A stretch of DNA of 64,000 bases from the NCBI GenBank assembly GCA_900767605.1, contig CAAFZT010000063.1, positions 3,747 to 67,746 of the forward strand, given 5' to 3'. Position 1 is the stretch's first letter. Each line of letters opens with the position of its first letter. Below, in pieces: positions 7,976 through 40,140 of the stretch. The stretch comes from Bacilli bacterium. Its GTDB lineage: Bacteria > Bacillota_I > Bacilli_A > RFN20 > CAG-826. Below the pieces are notes generated by a model. It did no database searches and was not told the origin of the DNA. It saw nothing but the letters and a program-made list of their open reading frames with translations. A program made the position numbers and the translations under genes.

Positions 7976-8604
7976 GCGTTGCCTCCTAACCCGAAGCTAA
8001 GCCGGAAGGTAAAATCGTTCAGTTTTAAGTTTGTGTCAGACTTCATCGCTTGACGGGCCGCGATAACGATATGGTGAGAAATCGTAAACGATAGGACGGA
8101 CGTGCTTGTGGTCTCTGGCACGACGAAAAGCAAATCCACGGATCCTGTGGATGCATTCGTCGTCACTGCTTCAGTTGTAGTCCCGTAAGTGCAGGATTGA
8201 ACGATTTCATTCGCGTTCCCATAATAGGTTTTCTTGGATTTGCTATATAACCCAAAAGTGCACTTCAAGGTGAATTGATTCAAATCGATCATCGTTTGGT
8301 TCATTTTGGCGCGGCTTAAGTCAAAGGTATACGACAAAGGCGCTTCCTTCACGGCAGCATCCCCCCCATTATCAAAGAAATAGGTGCCGAAGCTCGGTAA
8401 TGCCGTGGTCATTTTGATATCGATTCCATTGGTATCCCCAAGGAAGACATAATCGGCTTCCCCATTTAAGGTTCCCTGTCCCTCAGGATTGGTATTATCC
8501 CCTTGGATGACCCAGGCAGCAAAACCAGTGGAAGCTAAAACGGAGGCAGCAAGAACGCTGACACATAGTAACATGACGTTTTTATTGGGTTTAAAAGGGT
8601 TCAT
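7972..8604 (-). CDS. Small secreted protein with a 'GFAAW' N-terminal signal, paralog of 2751..3380
   Basis: 'ASTGFAAWVIQGDNTNPEGQGTLNGEADYVFL'. Shares the 'GTYFF(D/N)' block and the C-terminal 'L(S/R)(F/L)G(L)GG(N/K)A' end with 2751..3380. Confidence 0.6.
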   Translation of the reverse strand: MNPFKPNKNVMLLCVSVLAASVLASTGFAAWVIQGDNTNPEGQGTLNGEADYVFLGDTNGIDIKMTTALPSFGTYFFDNGGDAAVKEAPLSYTFDLSRAKMNQTMIDLNQFTLKCTFGLYSKSKKTYYGNANEIVQSCTYGTTTEAVTTNASTGSVDLLFVVPETTSTSVLSFTISHHIVIAARQAMKSDTNLKLNDFTFRLSFGLGGNA

Positions 8605-11530: not shown

Positions 11531-12610
11531 TTAGGCTCGCACCCAACGGGCGAAGAGTTTGATGTCGCCCCAGACGTTGGTGAGGTCGGTGAATTTGCCA
11601 GTCGTAGGTTTCACCACATTAGAAGTATACCACCCATCGAATTCATAGTTAGGACGAGACGCTAAAGGAACTTCGATGGATTCGCTATAGAAATTACGGC
11701 CCCGTTTGATTTGGATTTGGCTTTCCGCCTCGTATAAGAATTTAGCATCCGCGGCATTTAAATCAAAGGTGACGGTATAAAGCTGATTGGATTGATCGGC
11801 TAGAGAGATCATGAGTTGCCAGCCTTTATCCGCGTCAAAATAATAAATCGCGTTGCCATCTTGATCGTAATAGAAATCTCCCGCTTGCCCTTGGCTAGGA
11901 CGCGGGGCGCCTTTGCCGGAAATCCAGCCCGATTGACGTTTCAAAACAAACGATTCGGATTCGCCGTTAGAATAATGAAGCGTCACGGTGATATTGCCTT
12001 CTTCATCGGCACTCGACTCGCTAGAAACAACTCCGGTCCCTTGGGGGATGACGATACTATCATCAATCGAACCATCGCTAAAGGTAATCGTTAAGCGGAT
12101 CGAACCATCCGCCTGGGTTTGGGAAGCAATGGATTCGATGCCTTTGCCATCTTTCCCGTCTTGTCCCGGGTCTCCTTTTTCGCCTTTAGAAAGAGTGATT
12201 TGGTTTTTGTCCGTAGTTCCATCCGTATAATGGATCGTTAAGGTAATCGAACCATCCTCGTTATAGGTCGGTTCAATATAATCCAAAGAACGAACCGCGG
12301 GGACGGTGAAGGAGGTGGATTTGCCATCACTAGTTTTAAAGGTGATCGTCGTTTCCCCTTTTTCGTTTTTGGTCGCATTGACTTCGGTTACTCCAATCCC
12401 TGCTGGGACGGTAAAGGAGGTGGAGGGCTTATCTTCGTTCGCATAGATAATCGTGACTAACGTATCCCCGTTTTGAAGAGTCGTGGTATCTACGCGCGAA
12501 ATCGTAATCGCATCGTCTCCCGAAAAGAAGCCATTGCAGGAACTCGCTGTTCCTAATACTCCTAAGGCTAAGAAGCTTAGGGCAAGATGTTTGAGACTAC
12601 TTTTTTTCAT
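11531..12610 (-). CDS. Lipoprotein with five ~35-aa internal repeats, a short collagen-like G-X-Y run and a C-terminal Flg_new repeat
   Basis: Lipobox 'GTASSC'. Repeats of the pattern '..DG(S)I.LTI.(Y/F)(S/T)DG'. 'GEKGDPGQDGKDGKG'. 'YTVTFDLN...FDGWYTS...LFARW'. Confidence 0.65.
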   Translation of the reverse strand: MKKSSLKHLALSFLALGVLGTASSCNGFFSGDDAITISRVDTTTLQNGDTLVTIIYANEDKPSTSFTVPAGIGVTEVNATKNEKGETTITFKTSDGKSTSFTVPAVRSLDYIEPTYNEDGSITLTIHYTDGTTDKNQITLSKGEKGDPGQDGKDGKGIESIASQTQADGSIRLTITFSDGSIDDSIVIPQGTGVVSSESSADEEGNITVTLHYSNGESESFVLKRQSGWISGKGAPRPSQGQAGDFYYDQDGNAIYYFDADKGWQLMISLADQSNQLYTVTFDLNAADAKFLYEAESQIQIKRGRNFYSESIEVPLASRPNYEFDGWYTSNVVKPTTGKFTDLTNVWGDIKLFARWVRA

Positions 12611-12629: not shown

Positions 12630-15146
12630 TTATAAGGCGCTTATTGCATTTTGTTTTAAGGTATCTAGACTTGGGTATTTGCCAAATCTAGAACCAGAAG
12701 AATCAAAGAAACCAAACTGGAAGGGATTAAATCCCGTAACCATCGTAACAATCCGGTAAAGAAGGTTCCAATAGACTTCTTGGCCTTCGGCAGGACGATA
12801 CAAGTAATAATGGACCAAATCGCAATCCTTGATGCCCGCGTAATGGTCATTAAAATTCTTCCACCGGTAGGTTTCTACGATGCTTCCATTATATCCGCCT
12901 CCATAGAAAGCGATGGGGACAGAGATGGTACCTTGCTCGTCATAGACAAGATTCTCGTCTTTGGCTAATTGGGTCAGTACTTCTTTTAAAGGGAAGATTG
13001 CATCAATCGAGATATCCTTATTGAGTTTTTGGATCTTATCCTTGATTTCATCGGGGAGGATAGAAATTAACCCCGTGAAATCCTGTTGGAGGATGCCATC
13101 TAACACGAAGTCGCTTGGCTTCTTATCATCAAAGAAATCCGTCTTGCCGATTAGATTCAACTTCGAAGGCGCCATATTGAAGGCCATGTTCTTGGGAACA
13201 AAGGGGACAAGGCTATGTCCGGCCCCGTCGATCGGAGTATTTAAGGCTTGGATTAAGGTTCCCATTAAAGACGGGGAGAGGTTATATAAGAAAGGTCCAT
13301 TAAAGGAATTTTCTAATCCAATCGGCGAGACGCCACTTCGATAGAAAAGGTCGTCTTCGACTTCTAGACTCGTCGCGTAATCGTGCAAGCCGGTCTTCGG
13401 ATGCGAGGCAGATTGCAAAGAGTTGATCGCTCCTTCTGCCGCGCGGGAAACGCTGGCATCTCCACCTAAACTTCCTAAATAACTTGTTAATACATCTTGT
13501 CCTGGGCCGTTAAGATAAGCATCATAAGCCGCGGATTTCTTAGAGCCATCAAGTTGCAAGAACGAAGAGGTGGCGCTAGGATCGACGGGAGTTGTCTCAT
13601 CGCTTCCTAGGGTAAGGCAGAAATTTAAAGCATCGCTTAAAAGGCAATTCACGATTTTAGAGTTTTTGGAAGAGAAGGCACGGACCACGTTTTTGCCGTT
13701 ATGGAGCTTGGAATTTCGAATTTCGATGTTGTCCCCGTGTAAATTCATTACGGTTCCTGCGTATTGCAGGAAGGAATAGGAATCCCCATAATCCGCGTTT
13801 TTAACGTCGAGGTCGTTAACGAGGATATTATTTCCATCTAGATAGATCCCTGCGTTATCTTCGCCGTATAGCCCAATAAGAGGGAAACGTTTCGGATCGC
13901 CCATGCAGTAAGTAAATAAAGGACCACGGAACAAATTGGAAGTCGTTAAGGAAGGGACCGTCGCGGTTTTGCCATCACTCGTCACCATCGTGGTCTTGCC
14001 ATAAGGATAAGCCAAGTTATGGAAATTAAGGGTATATCCATTCCCATAGAAATCCTTTTGGATGCGAAGTCCCGCGTAGAGGGATTTAGAAAGGATCGAA
14101 TCGCGATATAAGGACGAAGAGGAAGCAAATTCGTTCCAGGCATCGATATAAGCCGTGTTGCCCGTCGTCTCATGGGCATAGATTTCGTTTTTGAAATTCC
14201 ATTTGGCCGATCCATCTTTTTCTTTGCCTAAATAGGTGCCAAATAAGGCGACGTTATTTTTCTTGGCTACAGGCATCCCATTTTCGAGCTTCATATTCCC
14301 TTTTTCGTCTTTTAAAGCAAAGTTATCGAGGGATTCAAAAGATTTACGGAGGCAGATAATTTCACCCTGTTCCGACTGATTCGTACAACTTAATAAGGTG
14401 GAATAGTCATAGACATTGATGCCATTTTGAACGACGACAAAGCTCGTCTTACGGGTCTTACCATGATATTCCAAGGTAAAGAAAGCTTCTTCCAAAGGCT
14501 TTTGGATATCTTTGATCTGGACCGTTCCTTTATGGAGGTCCACCGAAAGATTGGAACTGGCTTCTTCTAGGCGTAACGCGTTCGTCGTATCCGCGGGGAA
14601 GGGGGTAAAAGCATATTCAATTGTTGCTTTCTTTTTATTCGCACCCGTTCCATCATATTCTCCATAATAGAGTTTCGAATCAATATTCGCGTTCGAGGCT
14701 TCTACCTTGGGCGTTACGGTTAATCCATAGGAAGAATAAAGCACCGCGGTCGTGGTCTTTTTAATCGTTCCCTTACGGTTCGAGACGCTTAAATAGACGT
14801 CGCCTTCTTTTAAGGGGGTTAAATAATAATCAAAATTGCCCTGACTATTGATGCGGTCAGAGACGGTTAAAGTGCAATAAACCTCTTCATCGCTAGGGTC
14901 CACGTTGACGACGTTCCAAACCAAATCATTGCCATAAGCTAACATGCAGGTCTTGTCGTAAATTTGTTCCGCTTCGAGTTTTATCGGTTGGGCTTGGATT
15001 TTAAAACCAACTTGGGAAGGATATTGCCATTCGATATCGATCAAATCCTTTTCGATGCGGTTAAACCCTCCCGTCGCGGTGCTGACGCCCAAAAAAGCCA
15101 CGACAAACGGGAAGAGAAGGAGGAAAACTAAATTACCCTTTTTCAT
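12630..15146 (-). CDS. Large secreted protein, possibly with a parallel beta-helix region
   Basis: N-terminal signal anchor. Ig-like N-terminal region. 'NIEIRNSKLHNGKNVVRAFSSKNSKIVNCLLSDALNFCL' looks like beta-helix coils. No catalytic motif recognised. Confidence 0.4.
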   Translation of the reverse strand: MKKGNLVFLLLFPFVVAFLGVSTATGGFNRIEKDLIDIEWQYPSQVGFKIQAQPIKLEAEQIYDKTCMLAYGNDLVWNVVNVDPSDEEVYCTLTVSDRINSQGNFDYYLTPLKEGDVYLSVSNRKGTIKKTTTAVLYSSYGLTVTPKVEASNANIDSKLYYGEYDGTGANKKKATIEYAFTPFPADTTNALRLEEASSNLSVDLHKGTVQIKDIQKPLEEAFFTLEYHGKTRKTSFVVVQNGINVYDYSTLLSCTNQSEQGEIICLRKSFESLDNFALKDEKGNMKLENGMPVAKKNNVALFGTYLGKEKDGSAKWNFKNEIYAHETTGNTAYIDAWNEFASSSSLYRDSILSKSLYAGLRIQKDFYGNGYTLNFHNLAYPYGKTTMVTSDGKTATVPSLTTSNLFRGPLFTYCMGDPKRFPLIGLYGEDNAGIYLDGNNILVNDLDVKNADYGDSYSFLQYAGTVMNLHGDNIEIRNSKLHNGKNVVRAFSSKNSKIVNCLLSDALNFCLTLGSDETTPVDPSATSSFLQLDGSKKSAAYDAYLNGPGQDVLTSYLGSLGGDASVSRAAEGAINSLQSASHPKTGLHDYATSLEVEDDLFYRSGVSPIGLENSFNGPFLYNLSPSLMGTLIQALNTPIDGAGHSLVPFVPKNMAFNMAPSKLNLIGKTDFFDDKKPSDFVLDGILQQDFTGLISILPDEIKDKIQKLNKDISIDAIFPLKEVLTQLAKDENLVYDEQGTISVPIAFYGGGYNGSIVETYRWKNFNDHYAGIKDCDLVHYYLYRPAEGQEVYWNLLYRIVTMVTGFNPFQFGFFDSSGSRFGKYPSLDTLKQNAISAL

Positions 15147-15147: not shown

Positions 15148-16740
15148 TTAGTTTCCTACCTCCATATCATCCCAGAGGTTCTTCTTTTGCTTCATAAAAT
15201 AAAGGACTCCAGGAAGAGAGATTGCTAGTAGCACGGCAAAGGCAATCAAATAGATGATTCCTACTGGTAAACGTAAAAACGAGAATAAGGCGGCAATCCC
15301 TAAGAATAGAAAAGGCGCCCCATAACTATATAAAGAAGATAATAAGGTGAGATTCGCTCCCGACCTCGTTTTCTTCATTTCTTCCATTAAGCGGAGCAAG
15401 GACAAGGAGAATAAAGCAACTTCTCCAAATAGATAGGCAAGCCAGGTGGCTCCAGCCCCTAAAACTCCAGTAGAAGAAACTACAATCGAGGTGATAAGGA
15501 ACGATACCGAAGAAGCAAGGAAAGTCGGAGCAAATTTCAAGACGAGTTGCTTCATGGGGGAGAAAGGAATCGTCTTTAAAATCTTCATCGCTTCCCCTTC
15601 TCTTCCAAAATAATCCATGCCCCCGCTAGAGACGCAAAGAAATAACATCAAAAGGGCAAAGAAATTGATGTAGGTCGCTAGATTGGGGAACGAAACAAAA
15701 TAATAAGCAACGGTCCCACTAGAAAAGACGGTATTTAAGGCATAGAGGATCGAATAAGCAAGATAGGGGCTTAATAATAAGAACCCTGCAAAAGAGAATA
15801 GGCTAGTCGAATCGCGGAAAAGCAAAATGAATTCCTTTTTAAAATAGGCTTTCTCGGGGCTTAACGGCTTAAAACGGATTTTAGGAACCCTAGTATGGGC
15901 TTTGGCTCCCCCGCCGATATTACGGCTATAAAAAGGAACCGATAGCAATAAGCCAAGGATAAAGGCAAAAAGGCTAAAGGCCGCCCATAATAGTAACCCG
16001 CTACTAGAACCCGCGAAGAAAAGCTGAACCAAATAATTGGCGACGATCCAGTATATACGGTTCGCCACCATCTTGGATAAATTCGCGTCGGTTAAGAAGG
16101 CGTTGATGCCACTCCCTGAAACCAAAGAAACAAAGACGTCGAGAAGTTTAGCGTAGGCAAAAGCCCCTAGTCCCAAAAGAATAGCAATCACGATAAATTC
16201 TAGATAGGGGCGGGAAGATAATAATTGCTTGAAATAATGGAAGGGATAAACAAGGGCTAAAGCTAGACCCACTTCAAAAAAGAAGGTCATCAAGGGATAA
16301 AAGATTCCAAGGAAATAGAATAAGACGAGTTTACGGAAAACGAGTCCATAAGATAAAAGAACAGGATAAACAAAGAGAAAATCAAGAAGATAATGGGACC
16401 CCAGTAGTAGAATCAACTTGGAGAATATCTTTTTGGCGGGGGAAATCGGAAGGATATCCATGTCACGACGGTCTGATTCGTCGAAGAGGAGTTTTTCGGC
16501 TTGAAGCAACGAGAACAAAATCGAGAACAAAGAAACGATAAATAGAAATAAAGTCGTAAAGCTTAAAGAAGCCCCCGGGAAAGAAGATAATTTGGTAAGG
16601 ATTTCGCGGTAGAGATAGCTTTCAACAAAAACTAACACCCCAAGGCCAAGGACCAAAAAGAGGACGCGAAGGAAAAGGGAGACCCCTTTTTCTTTGCCTC
16701 CTAAAAGCAATTTGATGTCTTTCGCGATGAGATTCAGCAT
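15148..16740 (-). CDS. Polytopic membrane protein, putative ABC exporter permease
   Basis: 530 aa, almost entirely hydrophobic helices. Its ATG overlaps the TAA of the upstream ABC ATPase gene by 1 nt (TAATG). Confidence 0.6.
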   Translation of the reverse strand: MLNLIAKDIKLLLGGKEKGVSLFLRVLFLVLGLGVLVFVESYLYREILTKLSSFPGASLSFTTLFLFIVSLFSILFSLLQAEKLLFDESDRRDMDILPISPAKKIFSKLILLLGSHYLLDFLFVYPVLLSYGLVFRKLVLFYFLGIFYPLMTFFFEVGLALALVYPFHYFKQLLSSRPYLEFIVIAILLGLGAFAYAKLLDVFVSLVSGSGINAFLTDANLSKMVANRIYWIVANYLVQLFFAGSSSGLLLWAAFSLFAFILGLLLSVPFYSRNIGGGAKAHTRVPKIRFKPLSPEKAYFKKEFILLFRDSTSLFSFAGFLLLSPYLAYSILYALNTVFSSGTVAYYFVSFPNLATYINFFALLMLFLCVSSGGMDYFGREGEAMKILKTIPFSPMKQLVLKFAPTFLASSVSFLITSIVVSSTGVLGAGATWLAYLFGEVALFSLSLLRLMEEMKKTRSGANLTLLSSLYSYGAPFLFLGIAALFSFLRLPVGIIYLIAFAVLLAISLPGVLYFMKQKKNLWDDMEVGN

Positions 16741-17510
16741 TATTTCTCTTTCTCCTCGCTTTCATAGACTTCAAAGAAGGTGCGTTTTAAGCTAAGTCGC
16801 GCATTCGGGTTCTTCTTTAAATCGAGCAACAAGGCGATTTTGCCATGATTTAAAATAGCAACGCGGTCACATAATTCACGGACTAAATCGATATTATGGC
16901 TAGTAAGCAAGACCGTTTGGCCATTATCCGCGTATTCGCGCATCATCTTCGTTAATTCTTCTACGGCCATGACGTCGAGACCAACGGTCGGCTCATCAAG
17001 GATCCAAATTTCCGGGCGATGGAGAAGGGAAGCAATTAAGCAGAGCTTCTGCTTCATGCCGTGGCTATATCCCGAATTCGGACGGCTTAAGGCTTCTTCG
17101 CTTAAGTCTAAGCGCTTGGCGAGGTATTTCGCGTTATTCGCAAAATCCACCTGGGACACGGAATAAACGGAAGCGATGAAATCTAAATATTCGTATCCCG
17201 TCATCGATTCGTAGCAATTCGGTTCACTAGCAACGTAGCCAAAATGGGCTTTCGCTTCTAACGGATGAAGCAAAATATCGTCGCCTAGGATTTTAATTTC
17301 GCCGCTTTGAAATTTCTTGCAGCCGATGACGCAGTCAATGGTCGTGGATTTACCAACGCCGTTTTTCCCTAAAAAGCCAAAAACCTCTCCTTTTTTGACT
17401 TGGAGATTGAGTCCTTGGATGACTTCTTTCTTGCCGTAGCTTTTATGGAGTTCATTAATTTCCAGGGCACATTCAGAGGAAGGGAGTTTTTCTAAATGAT
17501 TGAAATCCAT
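16740..17510 (-). CDS. ABC transporter ATP-binding protein
   Basis: Walker A 'GKNGVGKST', signature-like 'YSHGMKQKL', Walker B 'ILDEPTVGLD', H-loop 'TSHN'. I chose the start at M12 (MDFNHLEK), which overlaps the upstream stop as TAATG. Confidence 0.9.
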   Translation of the reverse strand: MDFNHLEKLPSSECALEINELHKSYGKKEVIQGLNLQVKKGEVFGFLGKNGVGKSTTIDCVIGCKKFQSGEIKILGDDILLHPLEAKAHFGYVASEPNCYESMTGYEYLDFIASVYSVSQVDFANNAKYLAKRLDLSEEALSRPNSGYSHGMKQKLCLIASLLHRPEIWILDEPTVGLDVMAVEELTKMMREYADNGQTVLLTSHNIDLVRELCDRVAILNHGKIALLLDLKKNPNARLSLKRTFFEVYESEEKEK

Positions 17511-18841
17511 TATTCTTCTTCCTCCTTTTGGCTCAATACCCATAAGCGGGTTTGCTTTTTCTTAGTTTGAATAAAGGCGTATTTGCTATGGCAGTGCGGA
17601 CATTCTTTGACGTATCCTTCTTCTAGCATTCCCTTTTCACCACATACCGGGCAATAAAGGGAATATAAGGGGATCGAAGCTTCCTTTAATTCTCCTTTGC
17701 CTTGGAAAAGACGCTTTAATAACGCTTCTTCTCCATCTTCTTGGTGGATAGGAAGATATTTCTTTCTTCCTAGGATCGCCGTATCCCAAATGGAGAGGAC
17801 ATCGATTTCATCGTAGGCAGAAGTTTCTCCTGCGTATTTCCCTAAGCTAAACCCTTCTAAGGAATCGCTAGCGGTAAATAACAGCAAATATTTCGCGGTA
17901 GGATGGTCTTCTTTCCCAAGGGGAGTAAGTTCAAAACGTAACGCATCAAAATCAACGCGGTTGATGACCAATAAGAAATCCTTGGAAATCAAACGGATAT
18001 CTTTCGAATGGGTTAAGAAATCGTTTTTGGGGTCCATAGAAACCCGGCTGGATTTAGGGGACAAGGCAAAGCCGCCATTTAAGAGAAGCTTTAAAATATA
18101 GCAATAGAAATAGGTGCCTAAATCTTCGGTGGCGCTATTATTACGGCCATATTGGCTGATTTCAAGGTAAAAGCGGTACACCCGGTGATACAGGCGGTCC
18201 GACTTTAAGATGTTCGTTGGATAAATCCGGGGAAGATCGCAATTAGCTTTGGAAACGATCCGATAGAAATCGCTTTTTTGAATCCTCTCGATTTTACTAA
18301 ATAAACGGGGGAACGCGCATAAGGCTTCGTAGGTGCGATCGCTATCTAAGCTTAAGCGAGTCGAATTCACCAAATGAATGCGATTTTCATAGAAGGCTTT
18401 CCGGTGACGTAATTCTTTTTCGATTCGGCGTAAGGCCATCACAATGAAAAGGTTCTCGTAGATTAAAATATCGTCTTCGTTTTCTTTGTGATGGACGTAT
18501 TCCGGTTCCATTCTCCCCGCTTTATTTTTCCATAAGGCCGGATCGCGGAGGGTTTTGGCAAAGGAATCATTGCTTAACGAACCCGCTTGATCGGCACGAA
18601 GAATCGTCTCCACGTTTTTGGAGACTACATGCGGCTTATGGCAGATCGTTTCTATGATCGACAAAATATGAGAGGCTTCCTCGAAGAAGGCAAAGTCTCC
18701 ATCGATGAAAGCCCCTTGTAACGATAGAAAGGGGGAAGAAGAAAGCGAGTCAAAGAACCCGCGGATCGTCGGGCTTGAACTCTTCAACGAAGCAATATGT
18801 GTACTAGCTTCTTGAAGCCGCCTTTCTTCTTCCTTTCTCAT
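17510..18841 (-). CDS. Partner of the McrB-like NTPase (McrC/DUF2357-like N-terminal region?) with a C-terminal Zn-ribbon
   Basis: 'DDILIYENLFIVMALRRIEKEL' and 'PTNILKSDRLYHRVYRFY' align with 'DVDYQIYENRFVWSLINKAALFIEKRY' and 'RTNMIVKEPHYHACYELW' of 62741..64000. C-terminal 'CPVCGEKG...CPHCHSKY'. No clear PD-(D/E)XK motif seen. Confidence 0.5.
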   Translation of the reverse strand: MRKEEERRLQEASTHIASLKSSSPTIRGFFDSLSSSPFLSLQGAFIDGDFAFFEEASHILSIIETICHKPHVVSKNVETILRADQAGSLSNDSFAKTLRDPALWKNKAGRMEPEYVHHKENEDDILIYENLFIVMALRRIEKELRHRKAFYENRIHLVNSTRLSLDSDRTYEALCAFPRLFSKIERIQKSDFYRIVSKANCDLPRIYPTNILKSDRLYHRVYRFYLEISQYGRNNSATEDLGTYFYCYILKLLLNGGFALSPKSSRVSMDPKNDFLTHSKDIRLISKDFLLVINRVDFDALRFELTPLGKEDHPTAKYLLLFTASDSLEGFSLGKYAGETSAYDEIDVLSIWDTAILGRKKYLPIHQEDGEEALLKRLFQGKGELKEASIPLYSLYCPVCGEKGMLEEGYVKECPHCHSKYAFIQTKKKQTRLWVLSQKEEEE

Positions 18842-18858
18842 GATAACCCCTTTCTGGA

Positions 18859-20772
18859 CTAAAAGCGACGTAACATGCGTTTAATGGCGTCGCGCGATTG
18901 ATTAAATTTGTTATCCCCGTATAAAGATGAGATCAAATCGAGGATATGTTCTAAGCCCGGCTTGACGTTATCTTCATAACGCCCTTCGAGCTTCGATAGA
19001 ATTTTGCGGGTTAAGAAGAAATCGAGAACCGTTTCTTTCTTGCCACCGCAGGCGATAAATACCGGGACCATCTTCTCCATCTGCATGAGGATACGGTTGC
19101 CAAAGGCGACCCCAAATTCATCATAGACGTAATCGGTGATTTGCTCGAATTTGGTTTCATCGGCTTCCGTTAAGGCATAATCCTTATTTGCTTCCGCTTC
19201 GTCGAATAAGGCGTGAAGCTTCGAAGCACTTAAAACGATGGGTTCGACTTCTTCTTTGGCAGCAAAAGCCGCGTTACGGTTATGGAAGGATAAGGTAATC
19301 GCACGGTCATAGACCTTATCGGCAATGGAGAAGGTCGAATCGTCTTGGTTCGCCGTTCCAATAAAATAGGCAGAGCCTGGAATATCGACTTTTCCGTCTT
19401 CGAGTTTTGCAGGTCCAACAAACCCTGTTGGGAAATGCATGACGCGGATCTTCCATTCGTCTTCTGGATATTCCAAGACGGAGAGGAAGTCTGCAAAATA
19501 ATATTCAACGCGGGAGATATTCATTTCATCCAAAACGAAGAGATAAATACGGTCCGGGTTGTAATTGGCTTCATAAAGATTCATCAAGAAGTCCGTCTCG
19601 CGGTAAGTTTTCGAGAAATCGTTAAAATAACCAATTAAGGCCGATTTATCTCTCCAAGTCGCTTGGACCGGGACGAAGACACTGACGCCTCCTACGAATT
19701 TAGCAAAGCTACGCGGGAGAGAGGATTTTCCAGTTCCCGATAGACCTTCAAGGATTTCTAGATGGGAAGCGGCTAAACCCGCGACAAAGAAACGAAGGGT
19801 GTCGGTATCGTAATAGAGTTTTTCTTTTCCTGCTAAGAAGGAACGGAATTTGGTGATTAATTCCGGCAAAGCGATATCATCCCCATGGATCGATTCAATC
19901 GCATAGCCTTCATAATGCTTATCGATTTTGCATAAAGAGGGGAAGACGATTTCTCTTTCTGCAAGGGCTTCGGCGGTGGCACCAGTTCCTGCTCCCCCAG
20001 CTCCTCCGCCTTCTACATTTTCTGCAGAGATTTGGCTCGAGACGCTTTGGAAGCCGTTATTCGTTTCGTCTCCCATCCCTTTGGCCACATCTTCGTTCCG
20101 GTCTTCTTCTTCCAAAGAATCGCCAACTTTAGCAAAGGGCTTACCAAGATGAACAAAGTTCACCAGGCAAAGCAATACAGCAGAAATCAAAACGGCGAAG
20201 AAGAGATAGAGCAATAAGCTAATTAAGAGGGATTCGCCAAGGAACGTCATGGCGTTGCCTAGATTCTCTTTTGTATGAGGGACTTGGAGGAGTAAACCAA
20301 ATCCAACGGAAAGAGCAAGGCAAACAAGGAGGGTTCCTACATACCAAAGCCAATTCTTCTTCGCGTACCATTTCTTGCCGTCTAGAATCGCGTGACGGTA
20401 TTCAAAGATAAAGGCAAAAACGAAGAGGCTGATAAAGATCGCGACGAGAACGTTTAACGTCTGTCCGCCCATATGGGCGTTAATCGCGGGTAATCCTAAG
20501 CTTTGACGGAGCAAGGCAATCGGGTTTTTAGAAGAAACAAGGCTCGATTCTCCTTCTCCGTGCACGGTGATGCAGATCCCGACGAAAATCATTAAGAAGG
20601 TGAAAAACATCGATAAACCGATGGAAATCAAATTTCCGCGGGTGAGATATTCCCTTCGAATTCCTTTCGTTGGCTTTTCTTTACTCTCGGGGGCTTTGGG
20701 AGCTTCTGGCTCTGCAACAGAATTCGCCGTTAACGAATCCATCCCGAGGTTTTCGTTTTCTTGAATGTCCAT
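18859..20772 (-). CDS. Membrane-anchored McrB-family AAA+ (AAA_5-like) NTPase
   Basis: Walker A 'GLSGTGKSS'. McrB-type Walker B 'FVLDEMNISRVEYYFADFLSVLE'. 'FIGTANQDDSTFSIADKVYDRA' resembles McrB 'NTADRS...D.AL.RRF'. About five N-terminal TM helices and a Gly-rich linker. Start is uncertain: 20772 has an AAAGGAA SD; 20793 and 20889 are also in frame. Confidence 0.7.
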   Translation of the reverse strand: MDIQENENLGMDSLTANSVAEPEAPKAPESKEKPTKGIRREYLTRGNLISIGLSMFFTFLMIFVGICITVHGEGESSLVSSKNPIALLRQSLGLPAINAHMGGQTLNVLVAIFISLFVFAFIFEYRHAILDGKKWYAKKNWLWYVGTLLVCLALSVGFGLLLQVPHTKENLGNAMTFLGESLLISLLLYLFFAVLISAVLLCLVNFVHLGKPFAKVGDSLEEEDRNEDVAKGMGDETNNGFQSVSSQISAENVEGGGAGGAGTGATAEALAEREIVFPSLCKIDKHYEGYAIESIHGDDIALPELITKFRSFLAGKEKLYYDTDTLRFFVAGLAASHLEILEGLSGTGKSSLPRSFAKFVGGVSVFVPVQATWRDKSALIGYFNDFSKTYRETDFLMNLYEANYNPDRIYLFVLDEMNISRVEYYFADFLSVLEYPEDEWKIRVMHFPTGFVGPAKLEDGKVDIPGSAYFIGTANQDDSTFSIADKVYDRAITLSFHNRNAAFAAKEEVEPIVLSASKLHALFDEAEANKDYALTEADETKFEQITDYVYDEFGVAFGNRILMQMEKMVPVFIACGGKKETVLDFFLTRKILSKLEGRYEDNVKPGLEHILDLISSLYGDNKFNQSRDAIKRMLRRF

Positions 20773-20785
20773 GGGGGTATTCCTT

Positions 20786-21910
20786 TCATTCATAATCTTT
20801 CGTCGTATCTTGGATTTCTTCTTCGTTATTTTGCTCTTCTTCATAACTCGAAGTATCCATGAGTTCTTCTTCTTGGATGGGGGTTTCACCCATCAAGAAG
20901 CTAGAGGAGGTTTCTTGGCCGTTAGAAGTGACGACCTTTTTGAGGTTATTGCCAAGGCCTGGGGCTTCTTCTTTAGAGAGGAAGCCCGCTTCATTGAAGT
21001 GATAAGCATAACCTCCATAATAGATGGTCTCGCGGAAAGCAGAACTTAGATTCTTCGGGTCTTTTTTGACGGAGACCGAATCAACAATCTCCGCTAACTT
21101 TTGAACCCGTTCTTCTTCCGCCTTGTCGATTTTTCCAGCGAGGTAATTAAACATCAAGATGCTATAAGCAACGGAGAGAATCGTGATGATGCCGTGGGGG
21201 GATTGGAAGAACATGACGAGCATTCCAATTCCTTGGACCTTCTTCCCGTTATAGACGCCTTTGATGTCGTCTAAGGTTGCGTAATATTGTTCTTGGCCGG
21301 CGTTATCTGTAGCGTTATTCGCATCTCCCCGAGTCACGTAACGGGTCACCCCGTCCGATCCGGTTTTGATATCAATCACGCGGTGGATATAAATCGCATT
21401 CGCCGCGGGATTCCGGTTATAGAAGGCCACAACATCATAGAGGTGGATGTCACTGGCTTCATGAACCTTCGTCACAAAGATCATGTCGTATTGGGCGAAT
21501 TGATTGTCTAACGTATAGGTCTTTTGCTTCTCTTCGTCGAATAGATAGCTATTCGCATCGTTTTTAAAGCTCATGGAGCCGGAAGCGACGACTAACATCG
21601 ATTCATTCCCAAATCCCGTTAAGTTCCCTTGGGCTTTGTTAATCAAAGCGAAGGCGAACGCGGGGGTGATTAAGGCTAAGAAACCATAGAACAATACGTT
21701 GGAGATAATCGTTCCGGCCTTCTTTCGTCTTTTGGCTTTGACGTCCTGCTCCGTGATTTCCCGGTCGATGAGTTCGATGTCGCGTTTCCCTTCTTTCGTC
21801 TCCTTCACGTTGGCTTTGACGTATTTGCCAAATAGAATTGTGAAGACGGCGCAGAAGCTCACAACACCCAGCAAACTCATCACCAGGCTGATGATGTCCG
21901 CGGATTTCAT
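20786..21910 (-). CDS. SipW-like (ER/archaeal-type, S26B) signal peptidase I with extra TM helix and acidic C-terminal tail
   Basis: 'VVASGSMSFKN' (SGSM Ser box), 'IYIHRVIDI' (His box), 'VTRGDANNATD' (GDNN-like box), 'IKGVYNGK'. It sits next to genes with SipW-class signals. Confidence 0.7.
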   Translation of the reverse strand: MKSADIISLVMSLLGVVSFCAVFTILFGKYVKANVKETKEGKRDIELIDREITEQDVKAKRRKKAGTIISNVLFYGFLALITPAFAFALINKAQGNLTGFGNESMLVVASGSMSFKNDANSYLFDEEKQKTYTLDNQFAQYDMIFVTKVHEASDIHLYDVVAFYNRNPAANAIYIHRVIDIKTGSDGVTRYVTRGDANNATDNAGQEQYYATLDDIKGVYNGKKVQGIGMLVMFFQSPHGIITILSVAYSILMFNYLAGKIDKAEEERVQKLAEIVDSVSVKKDPKNLSSAFRETIYYGGYAYHFNEAGFLSKEEAPGLGNNLKKVVTSNGQETSSSFLMGETPIQEEELMDTSSYEEEQNNEEEIQDTTKDYE

Positions 21911-21912: not shown

Positions 21913-22707
21913 CTAGTTGATCTCCGCGGTGAGGATCGCCGTGAAACTTAATTCTGGCAGGTCTTTTTCATCAGTTGGATAAGGTCCTTTGAAGTCTTTG
22001 CCATAATGAAGAAGCGTTGTGAAATTCTTCATCTCTTGGCGCATTGTTTCATCTGGGATCGAAGCCCCTCCGCCGGGATTAGCATCATCATAATAAATCG
22101 AGGGATTTACATGATTGAATTTCTCGCCCCACTTAAAACCAAGGGTCACATCAAAAGATTTGGAATCGTCTTTAGAATCCACAGCCCCAAGGGGGATTTC
22201 AACGGGATGGTTGATATAATCTGTAGAATTGTTGATGGGGGCTAATTCGATATAACCCGCTTCAATAGCATCTAAAATAGGATTCCCCTTATATCCTTCA
22301 TAAGCCGTCGCGGTTTGTAACTGCAACGTAACTCTAGAGATATAAGTCCAGGGCAGGACTTTGCCTTGGATACAAACCGTAAGATGTTCATAGAGGTTTT
22401 TCCCATCATCGAGATAACAGAAGCGACCCGCTTTATCGTCTTTGGGAGCATCAAAGCAAATGGTGTTATACAAATCGTCGTTGGTGGCTTTAAAGAAATC
22501 GGTCAATTGGCCTCCATCCGTCGATTCGAAGCGTACTTTGGCGTCTTGGATGACACCGATGTGGGCGTTGCCACCACTAGAGGCCGAGGCGGAACTCGTA
22601 ACTACGAAAGCCGCCGCTCCAACGGAGCAAAGCGAAACCACGGCGAAAACGGAGACACCGAGTGTCACCATTTTCTTGGTCTGTTTCTCCATCTTGGAGC
22701 GGCGCAT
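21913..22707 (-). CDS. Secreted protein, member 4 of the tandem 'GFAxW / FxWGxxF..NP..(F/Y)Y' family
   Basis: N-terminal helix '...CSVGAAAFVVTSSASASSGG'. C-terminal 'LGFKWGEKFNHVNPSIYYDD'. Confidence 0.6.
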   Translation of the reverse strand: MRRSKMEKQTKKMVTLGVSVFAVVSLCSVGAAAFVVTSSASASSGGNAHIGVIQDAKVRFESTDGGQLTDFFKATNDDLYNTICFDAPKDDKAGRFCYLDDGKNLYEHLTVCIQGKVLPWTYISRVTLQLQTATAYEGYKGNPILDAIEAGYIELAPINNSTDYINHPVEIPLGAVDSKDDSKSFDVTLGFKWGEKFNHVNPSIYYDDANPGGGASIPDETMRQEMKNFTTLLHYGKDFKGPYPTDEKDLPELSFTAILTAEIN

Positions 22708-22752: not shown

Positions 22753-23562
22753 TTAGGCGGCAGCGGCACCGGAGGTATCGGCGGTTACAACAACGACGAA
22801 GTTCAACGCAGAATAACCTGCTGCAATTTCATCGGGGGTCCCGGCTTCCTTGCCGGTAAGAGCCTTGTAGAACTTGTTCAAATCTTCTTTGTATTTATCC
22901 CCACCGTAATTCTTTGTTCCTGTTTTAGAATCATAGAATTCGGACGGGTTTAAATTTTTGTTGGTATCTTCCGTATCTTTAAAATGGTCGCCCCAAGCAA
23001 ACGAAATCGTATAGCTGAGCGTCGCTTTGCTCTTATCCGTAGCAACCGTGAGGGTCTTGCCTTCTTCGGCTATACCATTGGTGTCGAAGTCAACGCCGGC
23101 TTCGCCAAAGCAATCGGGAAGAACAATATATTTGTTCGGATCGGCAGCCGCTTCATTGAAACGAGTTTCCGCTTCGGCGCTGAACTCCGGATCAGCATCT
23201 TCCGAGGCGACGGTTCCCATGCGCAAAGCAATATTAAACTTATTGACCATATCAGGATTGGTGTATTCGCCCGAAACGGTAATGGAGAGATTCTCCCAGT
23301 TCTTGCCATCACAACGAACGCGCCCCGTCTTGTCGTCCCTCTTAGAATCGAAGGAGAATTTATCGGTGATCGGATTGACGGTCAATTTAATGGATTTATC
23401 AGAAACAACACCGACGTTAACGTTGCCTTGAACGTTTTTGGTTGCAGAGCTGGAGATAACCCAGGCTGCAAATCCAGTTGCCACAAGGGCAATGCCCGCA
23501 AAGGCAGTGGCCCCAACGACCATCGCTTTGCGTTGATAGGATTTTCTAGTTAATTTAGCCAT
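22753..23562 (-). CDS. Secreted protein, member 3 of the tandem family
   Basis: 'ALVATGFAAWVISSSATKNVQGNVNVGVV'. C-terminal 'ISFAWGDHFKD...NLNPSEFYDS'. Confidence 0.65.
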   Translation of the reverse strand: MAKLTRKSYQRKAMVVGATAFAGIALVATGFAAWVISSSATKNVQGNVNVGVVSDKSIKLTVNPITDKFSFDSKRDDKTGRVRCDGKNWENLSITVSGEYTNPDMVNKFNIALRMGTVASEDADPEFSAEAETRFNEAAADPNKYIVLPDCFGEAGVDFDTNGIAEEGKTLTVATDKSKATLSYTISFAWGDHFKDTEDTNKNLNPSEFYDSKTGTKNYGGDKYKEDLNKFYKALTGKEAGTPDEIAAGYSALNFVVVVTADTSGAAAA

Positions 23563-23581: not shown

Positions 23582-24322
23582 TTATTTTCTAACAATGTCA
23601 ACGCCAATCGCGAAGCCAACTTCATTGACCTTGAACAATTCGTGAATGCAGAAGACCGCATCGTCCGCCCAGGTATAAGGATCTTCAGCTTTCTTGGATT
23701 CGGGTCTGCTATTAACCGGCATGGTGGTCGAACCATCCGTGTCGCCATTGTTGTAGAATTCCAAAGGATTCTTATCGCCAAAGTGGGTTCCCCATTTAAA
23801 CGTAACCGTCATTTTGACAGTGGTCCCCGCGGCAGCAAGCTTATATGCGCCGCCTTCAGGTGTATCAAATTTGACCTCGGGTTCGGCAGCAACCAATCCA
23901 AGGGTTTTGGCGTTGGTCCAATTATCAGCGCCAGCCGTTAATTTAAATTTGTTCTCGCCCGTTTGTTGTGCAACGGTAAATGTGCCCGTGTCGCCGTCAT
24001 CTTTTGATTTAACCGTAAAGGTATACACGATTTCCAATTGCTCGGCTTTTTCGCCTTCGCCGGAGGAAAAACTAAACCAATTGTTAGTAAGTCCCGTCTT
24101 GTTATTGGTTCCGAAAACGATTTCGCCATTGCCATCGCCATTTGCCTTGTCCCAGGTTCCGCCTTCAACAACCAAGCGATGGTCGGCGACGTCAAAAGCC
24201 GTCACAACACCAGACGCGCTGGTGGTAGCATTTGCCGAGATAACCCAGCCTGCAAAGCCGGTACCGATGAGGGCCATGGATCCGAGGCTAGCCACGGCCA
24301 TGATCATTGCTTTTTTCTTCAT
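23582..24322 (-). CDS. Secreted protein, member 2 of the tandem family
   Basis: 'ALIGTGFAGWVISANATTSASGVV'. C-terminal 'VTFKWGTHFGDKNPLEFYNN'. Confidence 0.65.
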   Translation of the reverse strand: MKKKAMIMAVASLGSMALIGTGFAGWVISANATTSASGVVTAFDVADHRLVVEGGTWDKANGDGNGEIVFGTNNKTGLTNNWFSFSSGEGEKAEQLEIVYTFTVKSKDDGDTGTFTVAQQTGENKFKLTAGADNWTNAKTLGLVAAEPEVKFDTPEGGAYKLAAAGTTVKMTVTFKWGTHFGDKNPLEFYNNGDTDGSTTMPVNSRPESKKAEDPYTWADDAVFCIHELFKVNEVGFAIGVDIVRK

Positions 24323-24375: not shown

Positions 24376-25140
24376 TTACTTCGCCGAAACGGTGAACGAG
24401 TGGGTGAAGCCTGCGCCAGTAAGCGTTTTTAATTTTGCGATCTTTTCACTTGCATCGGCTCCATGACTAGCTTTCGTTTTGGTACCGTCGTTGTAATAGT
24501 CCATTGGGTTCTTGTGATTGAATGCGGCGCCCCAAGCAAACCCGATAGAGAATTTGATAGTCAACGTTTGCTCCGTCGGGAGTTTATTGACTTTCAGCGT
24601 AGCTTGATTGTTCGCAGCGCTAACCTCAAACTTGTTGCCAGTCTCTGTTTTGCTAATGGTTATATAACCGGAATCCGTACTCGTAGAATCTTTCAGCGTC
24701 GGTAACGCACCCACAACACCGGAAGTTTCGCCCTTGTCCATCAACGTAGAATAGGTGGAACCCGTTTCGACAAATGAGATGTCCGAAACGCTGATGGTTG
24801 TAACGTTCGTATATTTGACAACGAACGTGTATTCCGCTTTAAGGTCTTCCTTATTCGCCTCATTGGTGCCAAGATCGGCGGTCAACCATCCGTTCGGTTT
24901 GGAGGCAGCATTCGCGCCAAAGACAATTTTGGCGTCGCCATCAGCGCCAGTTCCAAACCCTGTGCCTTCGGTAACTTTTTCCAGTCCAAGCGTGGTAACG
25001 TCGCCATCCGCTGTAATGGATCCGCTTCCTTCTCCTTTCTGAGACGGGGCGCCAATAATCCACCCTGCAAAGCCGGTGGAAATCACGCCGATGGACCCTA
25101 GCAGGGAAATGCCTGCTACAGCCATTTTTTTGTTTTTCAT
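24376..25140 (-). CDS. Secreted protein, member 1 (promoter-proximal) of the tandem family
   Basis: I chose the start at M33 (MKNKKMAVAG...), preceded by AAAGGGGA. 'VISTGFAGWIIGAPSQKGEGSG'. C-terminal 'IGFAWGAAFNHKNPMDYYND'. Confidence 0.65.
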   Translation of the reverse strand: MKNKKMAVAGISLLGSIGVISTGFAGWIIGAPSQKGEGSGSITADGDVTTLGLEKVTEGTGFGTGADGDAKIVFGANAASKPNGWLTADLGTNEANKEDLKAEYTFVVKYTNVTTISVSDISFVETGSTYSTLMDKGETSGVVGALPTLKDSTSTDSGYITISKTETGNKFEVSAANNQATLKVNKLPTEQTLTIKFSIGFAWGAAFNHKNPMDYYNDGTKTKASHGADASEKIAKLKTLTGAGFTHSFTVSAK

Positions 25141-25157
25141 GTTATTCCCCTTTATTG

Positions 25158-25227
25158 ATAGGTCGTGTGTATGCGCGGTTTCTTCTTCGATAGGAATGAA
25201 GAAAATACGCGTACACACGAGACCTAT
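25158..25227 (-). promoter_or_regulatory. Long imperfect hairpin in the 5' leader of the supra-operon
   Basis: The arms ATAGGTCTCGTGTGTACGCG and CGCGCATACACACGACCTAT (minus-strand reading) give about 18 bp with two bulges. They enclose a TTCTTC/GAAGAA hairpin. The structure ends about 10 nt before the SD of 24376..25140. Confidence 0.5.
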
Positions 25228-25360
25228 TGTACTCATGGAACGCCAAAAAAATGCTAAAGATAGTCCAAATACGAGAATAAAAAATTAAAAGTCCGATTCC
25301 ATCGGGTCTTTTGACGGGAACTTTTAAGACAAAAGTAAGGAAAAAACTCGAATTCCTTTT

Positions 25361-28802: not shown

Positions 28803-30161
28803 TCATTCGTTTTTCCCTTTGATAAAATAACCGCCTTTTTTCTGGGCACCTAGGAATTCGATGTAATGATGCAATTTTCTTTTGATGTTGTTTTTCAAGA
28901 TGTCCAACGTGACTTCAGGCTGCTTTTCTTTGATTAGGTTAAGTAGATTTTTTGTGCTGATTCCTGGGTTTTGCTGTATTGCTTGTAGAATCAGCAATTC
29001 TAAGTCCCCCAGTCTATCATCCTCGATTTTTACAGGGTCATTTGCAGGGTCATTTGCAGGGTCATTTACAGGGTCAGCATAATTTTGGTTCGGCAATGTC
29101 AGCATGAAGAAATTACCGCTTGGATTAAAAACAGGTTGCTTGTCGGCCCCTTCATATGCCTGAAGGATCCTGGGGATGCCTGTACCGAAGTTCTCAATGT
29201 AATGCAGTTTGCTGAGAATGTTGACCAATCCAGGGTTTCGGTAAGTCTGGACACCGGACATAATCTGTTCCAAAGTGGCCTGATAAATTCCTCCAGGATT
29301 CGTTATTTTGACTCTGTCGTCGAAAAATTCAATTTTGATATTCGAGCGAATGAAGTAATTGCTATGGGAGAAAGCGTTAAGTATGGCTTCGCGAAGCGAG
29401 GAGCCGGGATAGGAAACGGTCTCTTTCCGTTGCCATGAATCCGGAGAGATGACAGCAGATACGTCATTCAAATTCGCGGCATTGTCCAAAGTGCTCTCTA
29501 AACACTTCAGCAACGATCCCTCGAATTCCTTTTTCGTTACGAAATTTAGTTTCTTATCGTATTTCGCGAACTTGACGACGATATCCGATTGATCCGACAT
29601 CATAAAGCCAAGGTTCGTGTATTTTCCATCTTTGTCAATCATTCGGAGGGAGCGTAGATTTCTTTCTTCGTGGGGGATGCGGTTCTCATCGCAGATGTCG
29701 TTGAAGAAACGGAATGTTAGGTCCTGCTCATCGGAAACGTCCTCTTCGTAGCTGTATTTTTTGGAATCCAAAAGCATGAGCAAAATCTCGCTTTCGGTCG
29801 CCATTCTTGATGTCGTGCCAATGCGAACGTATACTCCGCTTGGTTTTGGACCCTTCTCTTTAAGGTAATAAGGCTTTTCGATTCCTTGGTTGACCTCGAT
29901 AACAAAGACACCGTCCTCATTGAAATGGTACCTAAGCAGACTGGCGACATTGGGATAGAAGACATCCCTTATCCAATTGGAGATTTTGACGTCCATCTCA
30001 TCCCTTTCCTTAGAATTCTTATAGGGGATAACTGTGCCGCCATCTTTCACGCCGACATAAATGGTGCCGCCTTCGGTGTTCAGGAAAGCAAGGATCTCTT
30101 TCTTGATTTCATCCGTCATCATTTCCTTGAGTTCAATCTTGTTTGACTCGATGTATTCCAC
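28803..30161 (-). CDS. AlbA_2 (Schlafen-like) / HATPase_c_4-like / wHTH putative DNA-binding protein (COG2865-like)
   Basis: GTG start with GAAAGGA SD. N-terminal 'ESNKIELKEMM...FLNTEGGTIYVGV' (AlbA_2 pattern). 'REAILNAFSHSNY', 'NFGTGIPRI'. C-terminal wHTH. Linker 'DPVNDPANDPANDPV'. Confidence 0.75.
   Translation of the reverse strand: MEYIESNKIELKEMMTDEIKKEILAFLNTEGGTIYVGVKDGGTVIPYKNSKERDEMDVKISNWIRDVFYPNVASLLRYHFNEDGVFVIEVNQGIEKPYYLKEKGPKPSGVYVRIGTTSRMATESEILLMLLDSKKYSYEEDVSDEQDLTFRFFNDICDENRIPHEERNLRSLRMIDKDGKYTNLGFMMSDQSDIVVKFAKYDKKLNFVTKKEFEGSLLKCLESTLDNAANLNDVSAVISPDSWQRKETVSYPGSSLREAILNAFSHSNYFIRSNIKIEFFDDRVKITNPGGIYQATLEQIMSGVQTYRNPGLVNILSKLHYIENFGTGIPRILQAYEGADKQPVFNPSGNFFMLTLPNQNYADPVNDPANDPANDPVKIEDDRLGDLELLILQAIQQNPGISTKNLLNLIKEKQPEVTLDILKNNIKRKLHHYIEFLGAQKKGGYFIKGKNE
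29029..29076 (-). repeat. 4 x 12-bp in-frame tandem repeat encoding the NDPA linker
   Basis: TTT(A/G)CAGGGTCA x4 on the plus strand. Confidence 0.9.
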
Positions 30162-38000: not shown

Positions 38001-38189
38001 AGAGAAACCGGGACACAACAATTGCCGAATTCCCTCACCGAATACAAGGATCTATTCTTCCCTCGTTTGCAAATGAGATTTAAAACAATGGGGATTCCAT
38101 GCGCGCAAAAACCCGGAAAGCGGTTGCAAAGCGTCCATGGAAAAGATGCCGTCCCGAGTTGGGGGCGGCATAGAAATTCGTTTATCCGT

Positions 38190-39095: not shown

Positions 39096-39136
39096 CGCGG
39101 CGGTTTCCTTTCTTCTTGAATTATAAGTAGAGATAA

Positions 39137-39162: not shown

Positions 39163-39191
39163 TTCTAGACGTAGGGTTTTAACGAAACGGA

Positions 39192-40097: not shown

Positions 40098-40140
40098 TTG
40101 TTTTGATTTCCTTTCAATGAATGTATGAATTGAAGATTAA

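Follow-up and report, generated by a model that had tools for sequence, protein, structure and literature searches.

A membrane-anchored McrB-type NTPase and its DUF2357 partner in a SipW-type signal peptidase operon of uncultured gut Bacilli

What would a motor derived from a restriction enzyme act on if membrane helices stood in the place of its DNA-binding domain? This question is raised by two adjacent genes at positions 17510-20793 (minus strand) of a 64,000-nucleotide stretch of DNA from a Bacilli bacterium (GenBank assembly GCA_900767605.1, contig CAAFZT010000063.1, positions 3,747 to 67,746), here called the window, to which all coordinates refer. A sequence-only reading of the window had assigned these coordinates, correctly for both genes, to a McrB-type NTPase fused to a polytopic membrane domain and to a partner lacking an evident nuclease motif, and had suggested a McrBC-derived motor repurposed for a membrane process. 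On balance, we favor the reading that the pair is a McrBC-derived, membrane-anchored NTPase module, without the DNA-binding N-terminal domain and the nuclease, and that it is a component of an operon for SipW-dependent export of surface proteins or fibers. As the pair lacks these two domains and lies inside a conserved export operon, its task probably lies in the cell envelope and not in DNA cleavage.

The NTPase, its membrane domain and its partner

The first gene of the pair (open reading frame 18859..20793, minus strand, ATG at 20793) encodes an NTPase of 644 amino acids (aa) with four transmembrane (TM) helices, of which residues 273-644 (18862..19977) form the NTPase domain. This domain carries the Walker A motif GLSGTGKS (residues 350-357; 19723-19746), the Walker B motif VLDEMN (19519-19539) followed by ISRVEYYFADFLSVLE (residues 420-441), and the block GTANQDDST (residues 479-487), which lines up with GLMNTADRS of E. 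coli McrB and contains the NxD(D)S signature (19336-19350). Across the family, the motifs GLSGTGKS, VLDE(M/L)N-ISR.EYYFADFLS and GTAN.DDSTF as well as R497 were invariant, and N482-Q-D484-D485 was invariant or nearly so. McrB proteins were the only sequence matches of the NTPase in the PDB (E = 8e-4), and an hhalign comparison of the family profile with E. coli McrB gave a probability of 90.9% (E = 1.2e-6), the two being alignable over approx. 150-170 residues. This alignment paired N482 and D485 with the Asn and Asp of the McrB NTAD sequence; being ungapped, it could also be read as NxxD. The McrB hallmarks noted in the sequence-only reading were thus borne out. The soluble domain matched no Pfam family, and a Foldseek search with the structural model retrieved the generic AAA+ fold (probability 1.0; MCM, Lon, dynein and MoxR-type proteins); the McrB assignment is based on sequence, motifs and the partner and not on the fold search. 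Judged by these motifs, the McrB-type AAA+ domain is intact and belongs to the "NxD" clade.

The membrane domain (residues 53-215; 20149..20637) was delimited by hydropathy, an AlphaFold2 (AF2) model and the positive-inside rule. Four strong hydrophobic segments (residues 53-76, 108-130, 148-170 and 186-215) coincided with four helices in the AF2 model (52-75, 108-137, 145-168 and 175-215; block means of the predicted local distance difference test score, pLDDT, approx. 76-95), which was built from 63 homologues and had a mean pLDDT of 78. The polytopic domain proposed in place of the DNA-binding domain is therefore retained, with four TM helices and not about five as first described, and scans of Pfam and NCBIfam found no DNA-binding family in the N-terminal region. 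The model further placed a short extracytoplasmic helix (91-98) in the first outside loop, showed disorder at residues 1-45 and 218-272 (pLDDT < 50 over 218-272) and had a confident alpha/beta domain from approx. 270 to 643. Counts of Lys and Arg over the 63 homologues were net positive for the N-terminus and the TM2-TM3 loop and neutral for the remaining two loops; therefore, both termini of the NTPase are predicted to be inside, with the NTPase domain in the cytoplasm. R52, C74, N90-P91, E131 and R133 were conserved within the TM domain, including a KNP loop on the outer side of the membrane and an E-x-R motif on its cytoplasmic side. The TM domain matched nothing in the Foldseek search, and no match of the NTPase to DivIC/FtsB was found in Pfam. 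Between the membrane and NTPase domains lies a disordered linker (residues 216-272; 19978..20148), delimited by pLDDT and family composition, in which the Gly-rich part seen in the sequence-only reading (23% Gly) is preceded by a stretch rich in Asp and Glu; its length varies within the family.

The second gene (open reading frame 17510..18841, minus strand) encodes the partner, 443 aa, which combines a DUF2357 region, a variable alpha/beta domain and a zinc ribbon. The resemblance of its "IYEN.F" block to N-terminal regions of McrC/DUF2357 proteins, first noted by eye, is now backed by a match of residues 51-200 to Pfam DUF2357 (PF09823; E = 7.6e-7), which exceeded the gathering score; the DUF2357 (McrC N-terminal-type) region extends over residues 51-230 (18152..18691), and PF09823 also matched 41 of 76 partner family members. 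Among 84 homologues taken from related loci, P70, R82, W104, K105, P113, Y128-E129-N130-x-F132, T209-N210 and Y218 of the DUF2357 half were invariant or nearly so. The C-terminal zinc ribbon, CPVC (397-400)...CPHC (414-417) (17531..17653), which the sequence-only reading had also recognized, was equally constant: Cys 397, 400, 414 and 417 were 99% conserved, the ribbon matched profiles of L37Ae/TFIIB-type ribbons, and a PDB profile search with the partner gave zinc-ribbon proteins only.

The middle domain (residues 235-390; 17672..18139), delimited from the AF2 model and column composition, showed no such conservation. Per-column composition of the 84 homologues revealed no conserved D/E/K triad in residues 235-390, and E371 was the only residue between 250 and 390 to reach 60% conservation. 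No partner family member matched a nuclease family in Pfam, and nine aligned outgroup partners likewise had no conserved catalytic residues in this domain; a D...ExK motif that seemed to be retained in two of them (L092 and L093) was dropped as a candidate when the alignment showed its residues to be unconserved. At the level of sequence conservation, the partner was thus shown to lack a conserved catalytic triad, in agreement with the earlier failure to find a PD-(D/E)XK triad. The AF2 model of the partner (pLDDT 76; predicted TM-score 0.70), for which the alignment was shallow (13 sequences; a search with a 76-sequence partner profile added one homologue), consisted of a helical N-terminal half, a middle domain of the order alpha-beta-beta-beta-beta-alpha-beta and the ribbon at the end. 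This order is compatible with a degenerate restriction-endonuclease-like fold; a Foldseek search of the model against the PDB for a hidden nuclease returned nothing below E = 0.1 and neither demonstrates nor excludes such a fold. Overall, we found no intact nuclease in the partner, no DNA-binding fold in the NTPase and no sign that the hydrophobic region is other than transmembrane, the three points on which the sequence-only reading could have failed.

The loss of the nuclease motif and of the DNA-binding domain could also be taken to indicate a decaying McrBC restriction remnant without present function. However, both open reading frames are intact, the Walker A, Walker B, sensor and Arg motifs are invariant over thousands of homologues, and conservation extends to the TM domain and the zinc ribbon. 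These conservation data effectively refute decay as an explanation, and we consider it extremely improbable.

A conserved operon around a SipW-type peptidase

Both genes of the pair are embedded in an operon, all on the minus strand, whose gene order was investigated in 85 fetched loci with 43-68% NTPase identity, from uncultured gut Bacilli carrying mostly the annotation Bacilli or Mollicutes. The order was constant in all 85 as far as each contig reaches: one to six paralogous secreted proteins with a signal of the GFAAW type, a SipW-type signal peptidase, the NTPase, the partner, an ABC ATPase, a permease, a secreted protein of approx. 840 aa and a lipoprotein of approx. 360 aa. The partner gene was located immediately 3' of the NTPase gene in 85/85 loci (gaps mostly 1-17 nucleotides, nt), and the peptidase, ABC ATPase, permease, 838-aa protein and lipoprotein genes were present in 82, 85, 81, 75 and 66 loci, respectively. 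Junctions were mostly of a few nucleotides or overlapping; in the window, the upstream sipW-like gene ends 8 nt inside the NTPase gene, and the partner gene shares its last 34 nt with the beginning of the ABC ATPase gene. Moreover, the normalized similarity of the NTPase across loci was correlated with that of SipW (rho = 0.72), the partner (rho = 0.62), the permease (rho = 0.62) and the 838-aa protein (rho = 0.52). This context, i.e., the order over 85 loci and the co-divergence of the components, supports the suggestion that a McrBC-derived motor has been repurposed for a membrane process.

The peptidase (20786..21910; 374 aa, 3 TM segments) is a homologue of SipW/archaeal-type signal peptidase I (TIGR02228, E = 4.5e-12; SipW model, E = 7.7e-10). 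Its SGSM, HR and GD boxes were at least 95% conserved among 80 homologues, and by sequence it appears catalytically intact. It is also unusually long; a charged loop lies between its two N-terminal TM segments, a third TM segment follows the catalytic domain, and an acidic tail of approx. 100 residues forms the C-terminus.

Upstream of the peptidase gene lie four paralogous genes for secreted proteins with a "GFA(A/G)W(V/I)IS"-type signal (21913-22707, 22753-23562, 23582-24322 and 24376-25146). In the 143 paralogs collected from related loci, the signal ends in (T/V)GFA(A/S)W(V/I)I(S/T) and is followed by G-N-(V/I)-x-V..V.D, and the C-terminal part contains F.WG..F.G.NP..YYD; judged by these shared sequence features, the GFAAW-signal proteins are a large undescribed secreted family; none of them matched a profile in Pfam, NCBIfam or the PDB. 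Signals of the wider form G-(F/T)-(A/S)-(A/S)-W-(V/F/I) were observed, in addition to the four in the operon, in three tandem genes at 38190-41100 and at 2053-3380 and 7265-8604.

Downstream of the pair, the ABC ATPase (16740-17543; Pfam ABC_tran, E = 5e-24) is followed by a 12-TM permease of 530 aa (15148-16740; PF09847, 12TM_1, matched on its homologues), by the secreted protein of 838 aa (12630-15146), which is conserved at the operon end, and by the lipoprotein (11531-12610; 359 aa). This last gene encodes a lipobox, ...TASSC, a run of collagen-like triplets, GEKGDPGQDGKDGKG, and a C-terminal Listeria-Bacteroides repeat (TIGR02543).

The sipW-tasA and sipW-bsaABC biofilm-fiber operons of B. 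subtilis and C. perfringens share with this operon a SipW-type peptidase gene beside several paralogous secreted proteins, an operon logic described in PMC11580942, and a signal ending in a G-aromatic-A-A-aromatic motif; the GFAAW signal presumably resembles the GTWAAF of TasA. On the other hand, those operons have no AAA+ NTPase, DUF2357 protein or ABC exporter.

The scan of the operon for promoters and terminators gave counts that did not exceed those expected from shuffled sequences, and the search for riboswitches 5' of the operon yielded sub-threshold matches to miRNA models only, due to a long hairpin. This hairpin, approx. 70 nt long and near-perfect (25157-25226, minus strand), lies directly 5' of the first operon gene's ribosome-binding site within a leader of 214 nt (25147-25360) that folds at -57.8 kcal/mol (z = -4.25 as compared to shuffles); a terminator-like hairpin of the gene upstream of the operon was observed at 25293-25305.

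Relation to McrBC, CoCoNuT and CoCoPALM

Full-length homologues of the NTPase formed more than 3,688 clusters at 90% identity, and relatives were found in at least 561 species-representative genomes, nearly all from uncultured gut bacteria; such numbers are far above chance. Most carriers had the annotation Bacilli or Mollicutes, examples being Ca. Enteromonas, Ca. Onthovivens and Staphylococcus sp. CAG:324, with others among the Clostridia and Christensenellaceae, and the window itself was matched at 98-99% identity by contigs from an uncultured Bacilli bacterium and from uncultured Mollicutes bacterium UMGS153. A HMMER search with the NTPase domain retrieved 8,109 cluster representatives (E <= 1e-3); among the nearest 150 of these, the signature read N.D[DE]ST wherever the pattern was found, and a minority gave no match. 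The NxD relatives fell into four groups, i.e., 4-TM proteins, 1-2-TM proteins of approx. 500 aa, TM-less proteins of 700-830 aa (a CoCoNuT-like size class) and rare 10-16-TM fusions. One locus with two tandem 1-2-TM McrB-like genes (L088), each with its own 3' gene, one of which encodes a 604-aa coiled-coil protein with the motif YSVYENRF, lay among genes for giant surface proteins: a protein with leucine-rich repeats, a GH3 protein, and a transglutaminase-like protein of 1141 aa that combines an AgI/II C2 domain with an extended (GS)n spacer.

Compared to canonical McrBC (E. coli; PDB 6HZ4, 6UT6 and 7VSR), the pair shares the Walker A motif, the DExN Walker B motif, the Asn/Asp sensor signature, the Arg and an adjacent downstream partner gene with a McrC N-terminal (DUF2357) domain. 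Conversely, four TM helices stand in the place of the DNA-binding N-domain, the signature is N-x-D-D and not N-x-x-D-R, the partner has no conserved PD-(D/E)xK motif and has gained a zinc ribbon, and the context is a core envelope operon. The pair is thus McrBC-like as a pair of NTPase and activator, but it fails on two defining features, the DNA-binding domain and the nuclease.

An NxD motif followed by D/E defines a major non-canonical branch of McrB proteins (Bell et al. 2024, PMC11090510), within which the sister CoCoNuT clade (CnuB/CnuC) is predicted to be defensive by the same authors. CoCoNuT systems share with the pair the NxD(D/E)ST NTPase clade and McrC homologues that are often nuclease-less or inactivated; however, they are cytoplasmic, fused to coiled coils and always accompanied by HEPN or other nucleases, and the 4-TM pair has neither the TM-less architecture nor an associated nuclease.

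A closer likeness was found to CoCoPALM, named in one paragraph and left unexplored by Bell et al. (2024, PMC11090510), who described an NTPase with a FtsB-like single TM segment and a coiled coil, coiled-coil partners and signal-peptidase neighbors; the 1-TM NxD group found here corresponds to it. In the 1-TM NTPase loci that we fetched, secreted proteins with signals ending in ...GFAWF, ...TFAWF or ...TYAWY were encoded upstream, and the partner, a SipW-type peptidase (E = 3.9e-14), a membrane EAL cyclic di-GMP (c-di-GMP) phosphodiesterase and a PNP_UDP-like protein downstream. In common with CoCoPALM, the 4-TM pair thus has an NxD NTPase anchored in the membrane and a DUF2357 partner in which no active nuclease is evident, and both are accompanied by a SipW-type signal peptidase and, as observed here, by secreted proteins with "(G/T)(F)AW" signals. 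It differs in having a 4-TM bundle, a disordered linker and a zinc-ribbon partner instead of a FtsB-like domain, and in an operon with an ABC exporter, a secreted protein of approx. 840 aa and a lipoprotein instead of the EAL phosphodiesterase. The longest non-TM helices in the AF2 models of the 4-TM pair comprise approx. 29 residues (partner 128-156 and 166-188), and its partner model has no long K/E-rich tail of the kind found in a 661-aa CoCoPALM-type partner (see below). The pair is accordingly a 4-TM, zinc-ribbon variant akin to CoCoPALM in which coiled coils are not evident, and the general idea has published precedent; a literature search found no follow-up on CoCoPALM and nothing on the 4-TM form or on PDC-M26, a candidate defense system.

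The window also contains a CoCoPALM-type locus (plus strand). Its NTPase (61200-62741; 513 aa, one TM segment followed by a heptad-like helix) is 39% identical to the first NTPase over the NTPase domain (E = 2e-82) and is followed by an overlapping DUF2357 open reading frame (E = 2.2e-8) that runs off the window end. On a longer, near-identical contig (L174), this locus goes on with the 661-aa coiled-coil partner, a SipW-type peptidase, an EAL protein and a PNP_UDP_1 protein. Two genes precede the NTPase (58962-60098 and 60255-61184), and these are headed by a c-di-GMP-I riboswitch (58884-58959; 58.9 bits, above the Rfam gathering threshold). As c-di-GMP is the usual regulator of surface and biofilm structures, this riboswitch ties the sister system to that signal. 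The fact that one organism keeps both the 4-TM and the CoCoPALM type argues for non-redundant roles. Moreover, the same four components, i.e., a membrane NxD NTPase, a DUF2357 partner, a SipW-type peptidase and FAW-signal proteins, recur together in two architectures, which is the strongest argument for a functional link between them. Another c-di-GMP-I riboswitch (48645-48721, minus strand; 55.9 bits, above the same threshold) was observed just 5' of genes for a 300-aa "...STFAWFTTNR"-signal protein (47734-48636) and a 1347-aa "...SYAWFKNKN"-signal protein (43694-47737).

The wiring of the sister locus to c-di-GMP via riboswitch and EAL protein also speaks for an alternative in which the NTPase is a regulatory switch or envelope sensor and not a motor, i.e., the TM domain senses the secretion or assembly site and the zinc ribbon relays the signal to a cytoplasmic target (candidates being the ABC ATPase, the cytoplasmic loops of SipW or nucleic acid). 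Such a role would fit a ribbon that is invariant while the middle domain varies, the conserved extracytoplasmic KNP loop and cytoplasmic E-x-R motif of the TM domain, and the long stable hairpin in the operon leader. However, McrB-type AAA+ proteins are known as mechanochemical hexamers and not as switches, and no DNA- or RNA-binding domain was detected beyond the small ribbon. The present data do not separate a switch from a motor; we regard the switch as distinctly unlikely.

A possible role in surface-protein biogenesis

Inferred from its context, the pair is most likely an NTP-driven membrane module for SipW-dependent biogenesis of surface proteins or fibers. By analogy with McrBC structures, the NTPase would form a hexameric ring under the membrane, hung on 24 TM helices, and the DUF2357 region of the partner would plug this ring and stimulate NTP hydrolysis, with R82 and K105 as candidate stimulating residues. 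Movement driven by hydrolysis may then reach the TM domain and act on clients embedded in the membrane, the output being something other than DNA cleavage. The operon context suggests the signal-anchored GFAAW precursors around SipW as the most plausible clients (for handing over, extraction, polymerization or release); alternatively, the pair could gate the adjacent ABC exporter.

More tentatively, the 4-TM McrB-type ring and its McrC-derived plug may be the energy-coupling core of an unrecognized surface-fiber or secretion machine of uncultured gut Bacilli. This would be a hexameric GTPase with 24 TM helices that, with SipW and the ABC exporter, extracts, polymerizes or releases GFAAW subunits; functionally, it would match the PilB/PilC pair of ATPase and platform in type IV pili, but with a restriction enzyme as its ancestor. 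In C. perfringens, SipW-processed, TasA-like BsaA fibers assemble while membrane-anchored, and some type IV pilus genes, among them the ATPase gene pilB1, were needed for BsaA to be secreted efficiently (PMC11580942); this dependence is a precedent for SipW substrates needing such a machine.

If this envelope role holds, the locus offers a clean case in which McrBC, the textbook GTP-driven restriction motor, has lost its DNA reader and nuclease, acquired a conserved polytopic membrane domain and become fixed in a core envelope operon, i.e., a concrete and testable example of a defense machine recruited to cell-surface biogenesis. The idea of CoCoPALM would thereby gain a second architecture, with a defined operon of 8-11 genes, and the locus would point to an unrecognized export or assembly pathway, together with the GFAAW surface proteins, in bacteria about whose biology almost nothing has been learned.

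Several observations weigh against this role. McrC fills the pore of the ring in canonical McrBC; by analogy, threading of a substrate would not obviously be available to the pair. Foldseek found no McrB among the best 50 matches of the NTPase model and no McrC for the partner at the threshold given above, and hhalign found no relation between the partner family and E. coli McrC. The GFAAW paralogs showed no sequence similarity to TasA, BsaA, camelysin (Peptidase_M73) or a known fiber subunit in Pfam, NCBIfam or PDB-profile comparisons; a TasA-like identity, which no sequence method backs, was therefore set aside. The partner diverges fastest among the operon proteins (24-44% identity), which could also fit an arms race. 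Finally, distant 4-TM relatives occur as free-standing two-gene modules without SipW or ABC genes, and the pair can thus work outside the operon. The partners in these modules (DUF2357 plus zinc ribbon, 436-1190 aa, no conserved catalytic triad) are encoded among housekeeping and envelope genes. We conclude from these free-standing modules that the pair of 4-TM NTPase and zinc-ribbon partner is autonomous and that one clade of it was fixed in the SipW/ABC operon.

In five of the distant 4-TM relatives (L095-L098 and L136), the partner was observed to have an extra C-terminal part of approx. 600-700 aa (total 1047-1190 aa); in L092, a separate protein of 891 aa, without BLAST similarity to these extensions and without a Pfam match, is encoded after the partner. 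The extensions and the 891-aa protein may represent effector or adaptor domains.

The free-standing modules and the fast divergence of the partner also speak for an alternative in which the pair is an anti-phage or conflict system, i.e., a membrane derivative of McrBC that senses infection, uses its TM domain to kill or arrest the cell (abortive infection) and has merely become fixed beside envelope genes. Ancestry in Type IV restriction and the predicted defensive role of CoCoNuT would agree with this, as would the closest PADLOC model, PDC-M26A (E = 7e-48), a candidate defense protein. This match is, however, limited to the NTPase domain (approx. 300-440 of 724 profile positions) and is equal for all NxD subgroups, and the partners match no PADLOC model, the PDC-M26B partner included; membership in PDC-M26 was consequently dropped. 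Defense genes typically show a patchy, island-borne distribution. By contrast, the pair holds a fixed position and order within one operon in 85 loci, drawn from at least 561 species-representative genomes that carry relatives, with overlapping or tightly packed frames and co-diverging components; even the free-standing relatives lie among housekeeping and envelope genes and not in defense islands, and no nuclease or other recognizable effector was found. Overall, we consider a defense function unlikely and favor the envelope role.

Two further features of the window were observed outside the operon. Directly 3' of it (2053-11489, minus strand), a three-gene unit occurs in tandem duplicate (962, 210 and 236 aa in the first and 1040, 209 and 233 aa in the second; pairwise identity 28-35%); the small proteins of both units bear GFAAW-like signals, and a homologue of Lgt, prolipoprotein diacylglyceryl transferase, is encoded between the two units (6489-7268). 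Scattered paralogs were also found at 28803-30161, 37352-38257, 52464-53798 and 57013-58806. The counterparts of the last two on the longer contig combine SLFN_AlbA_2 and HATPase_c_4 domains and have AAA_14/DUF4143 neighbors, and these scattered SLFN_AlbA_2/AAA_14-type genes are possibly transcription-regulator or defense-like genes.

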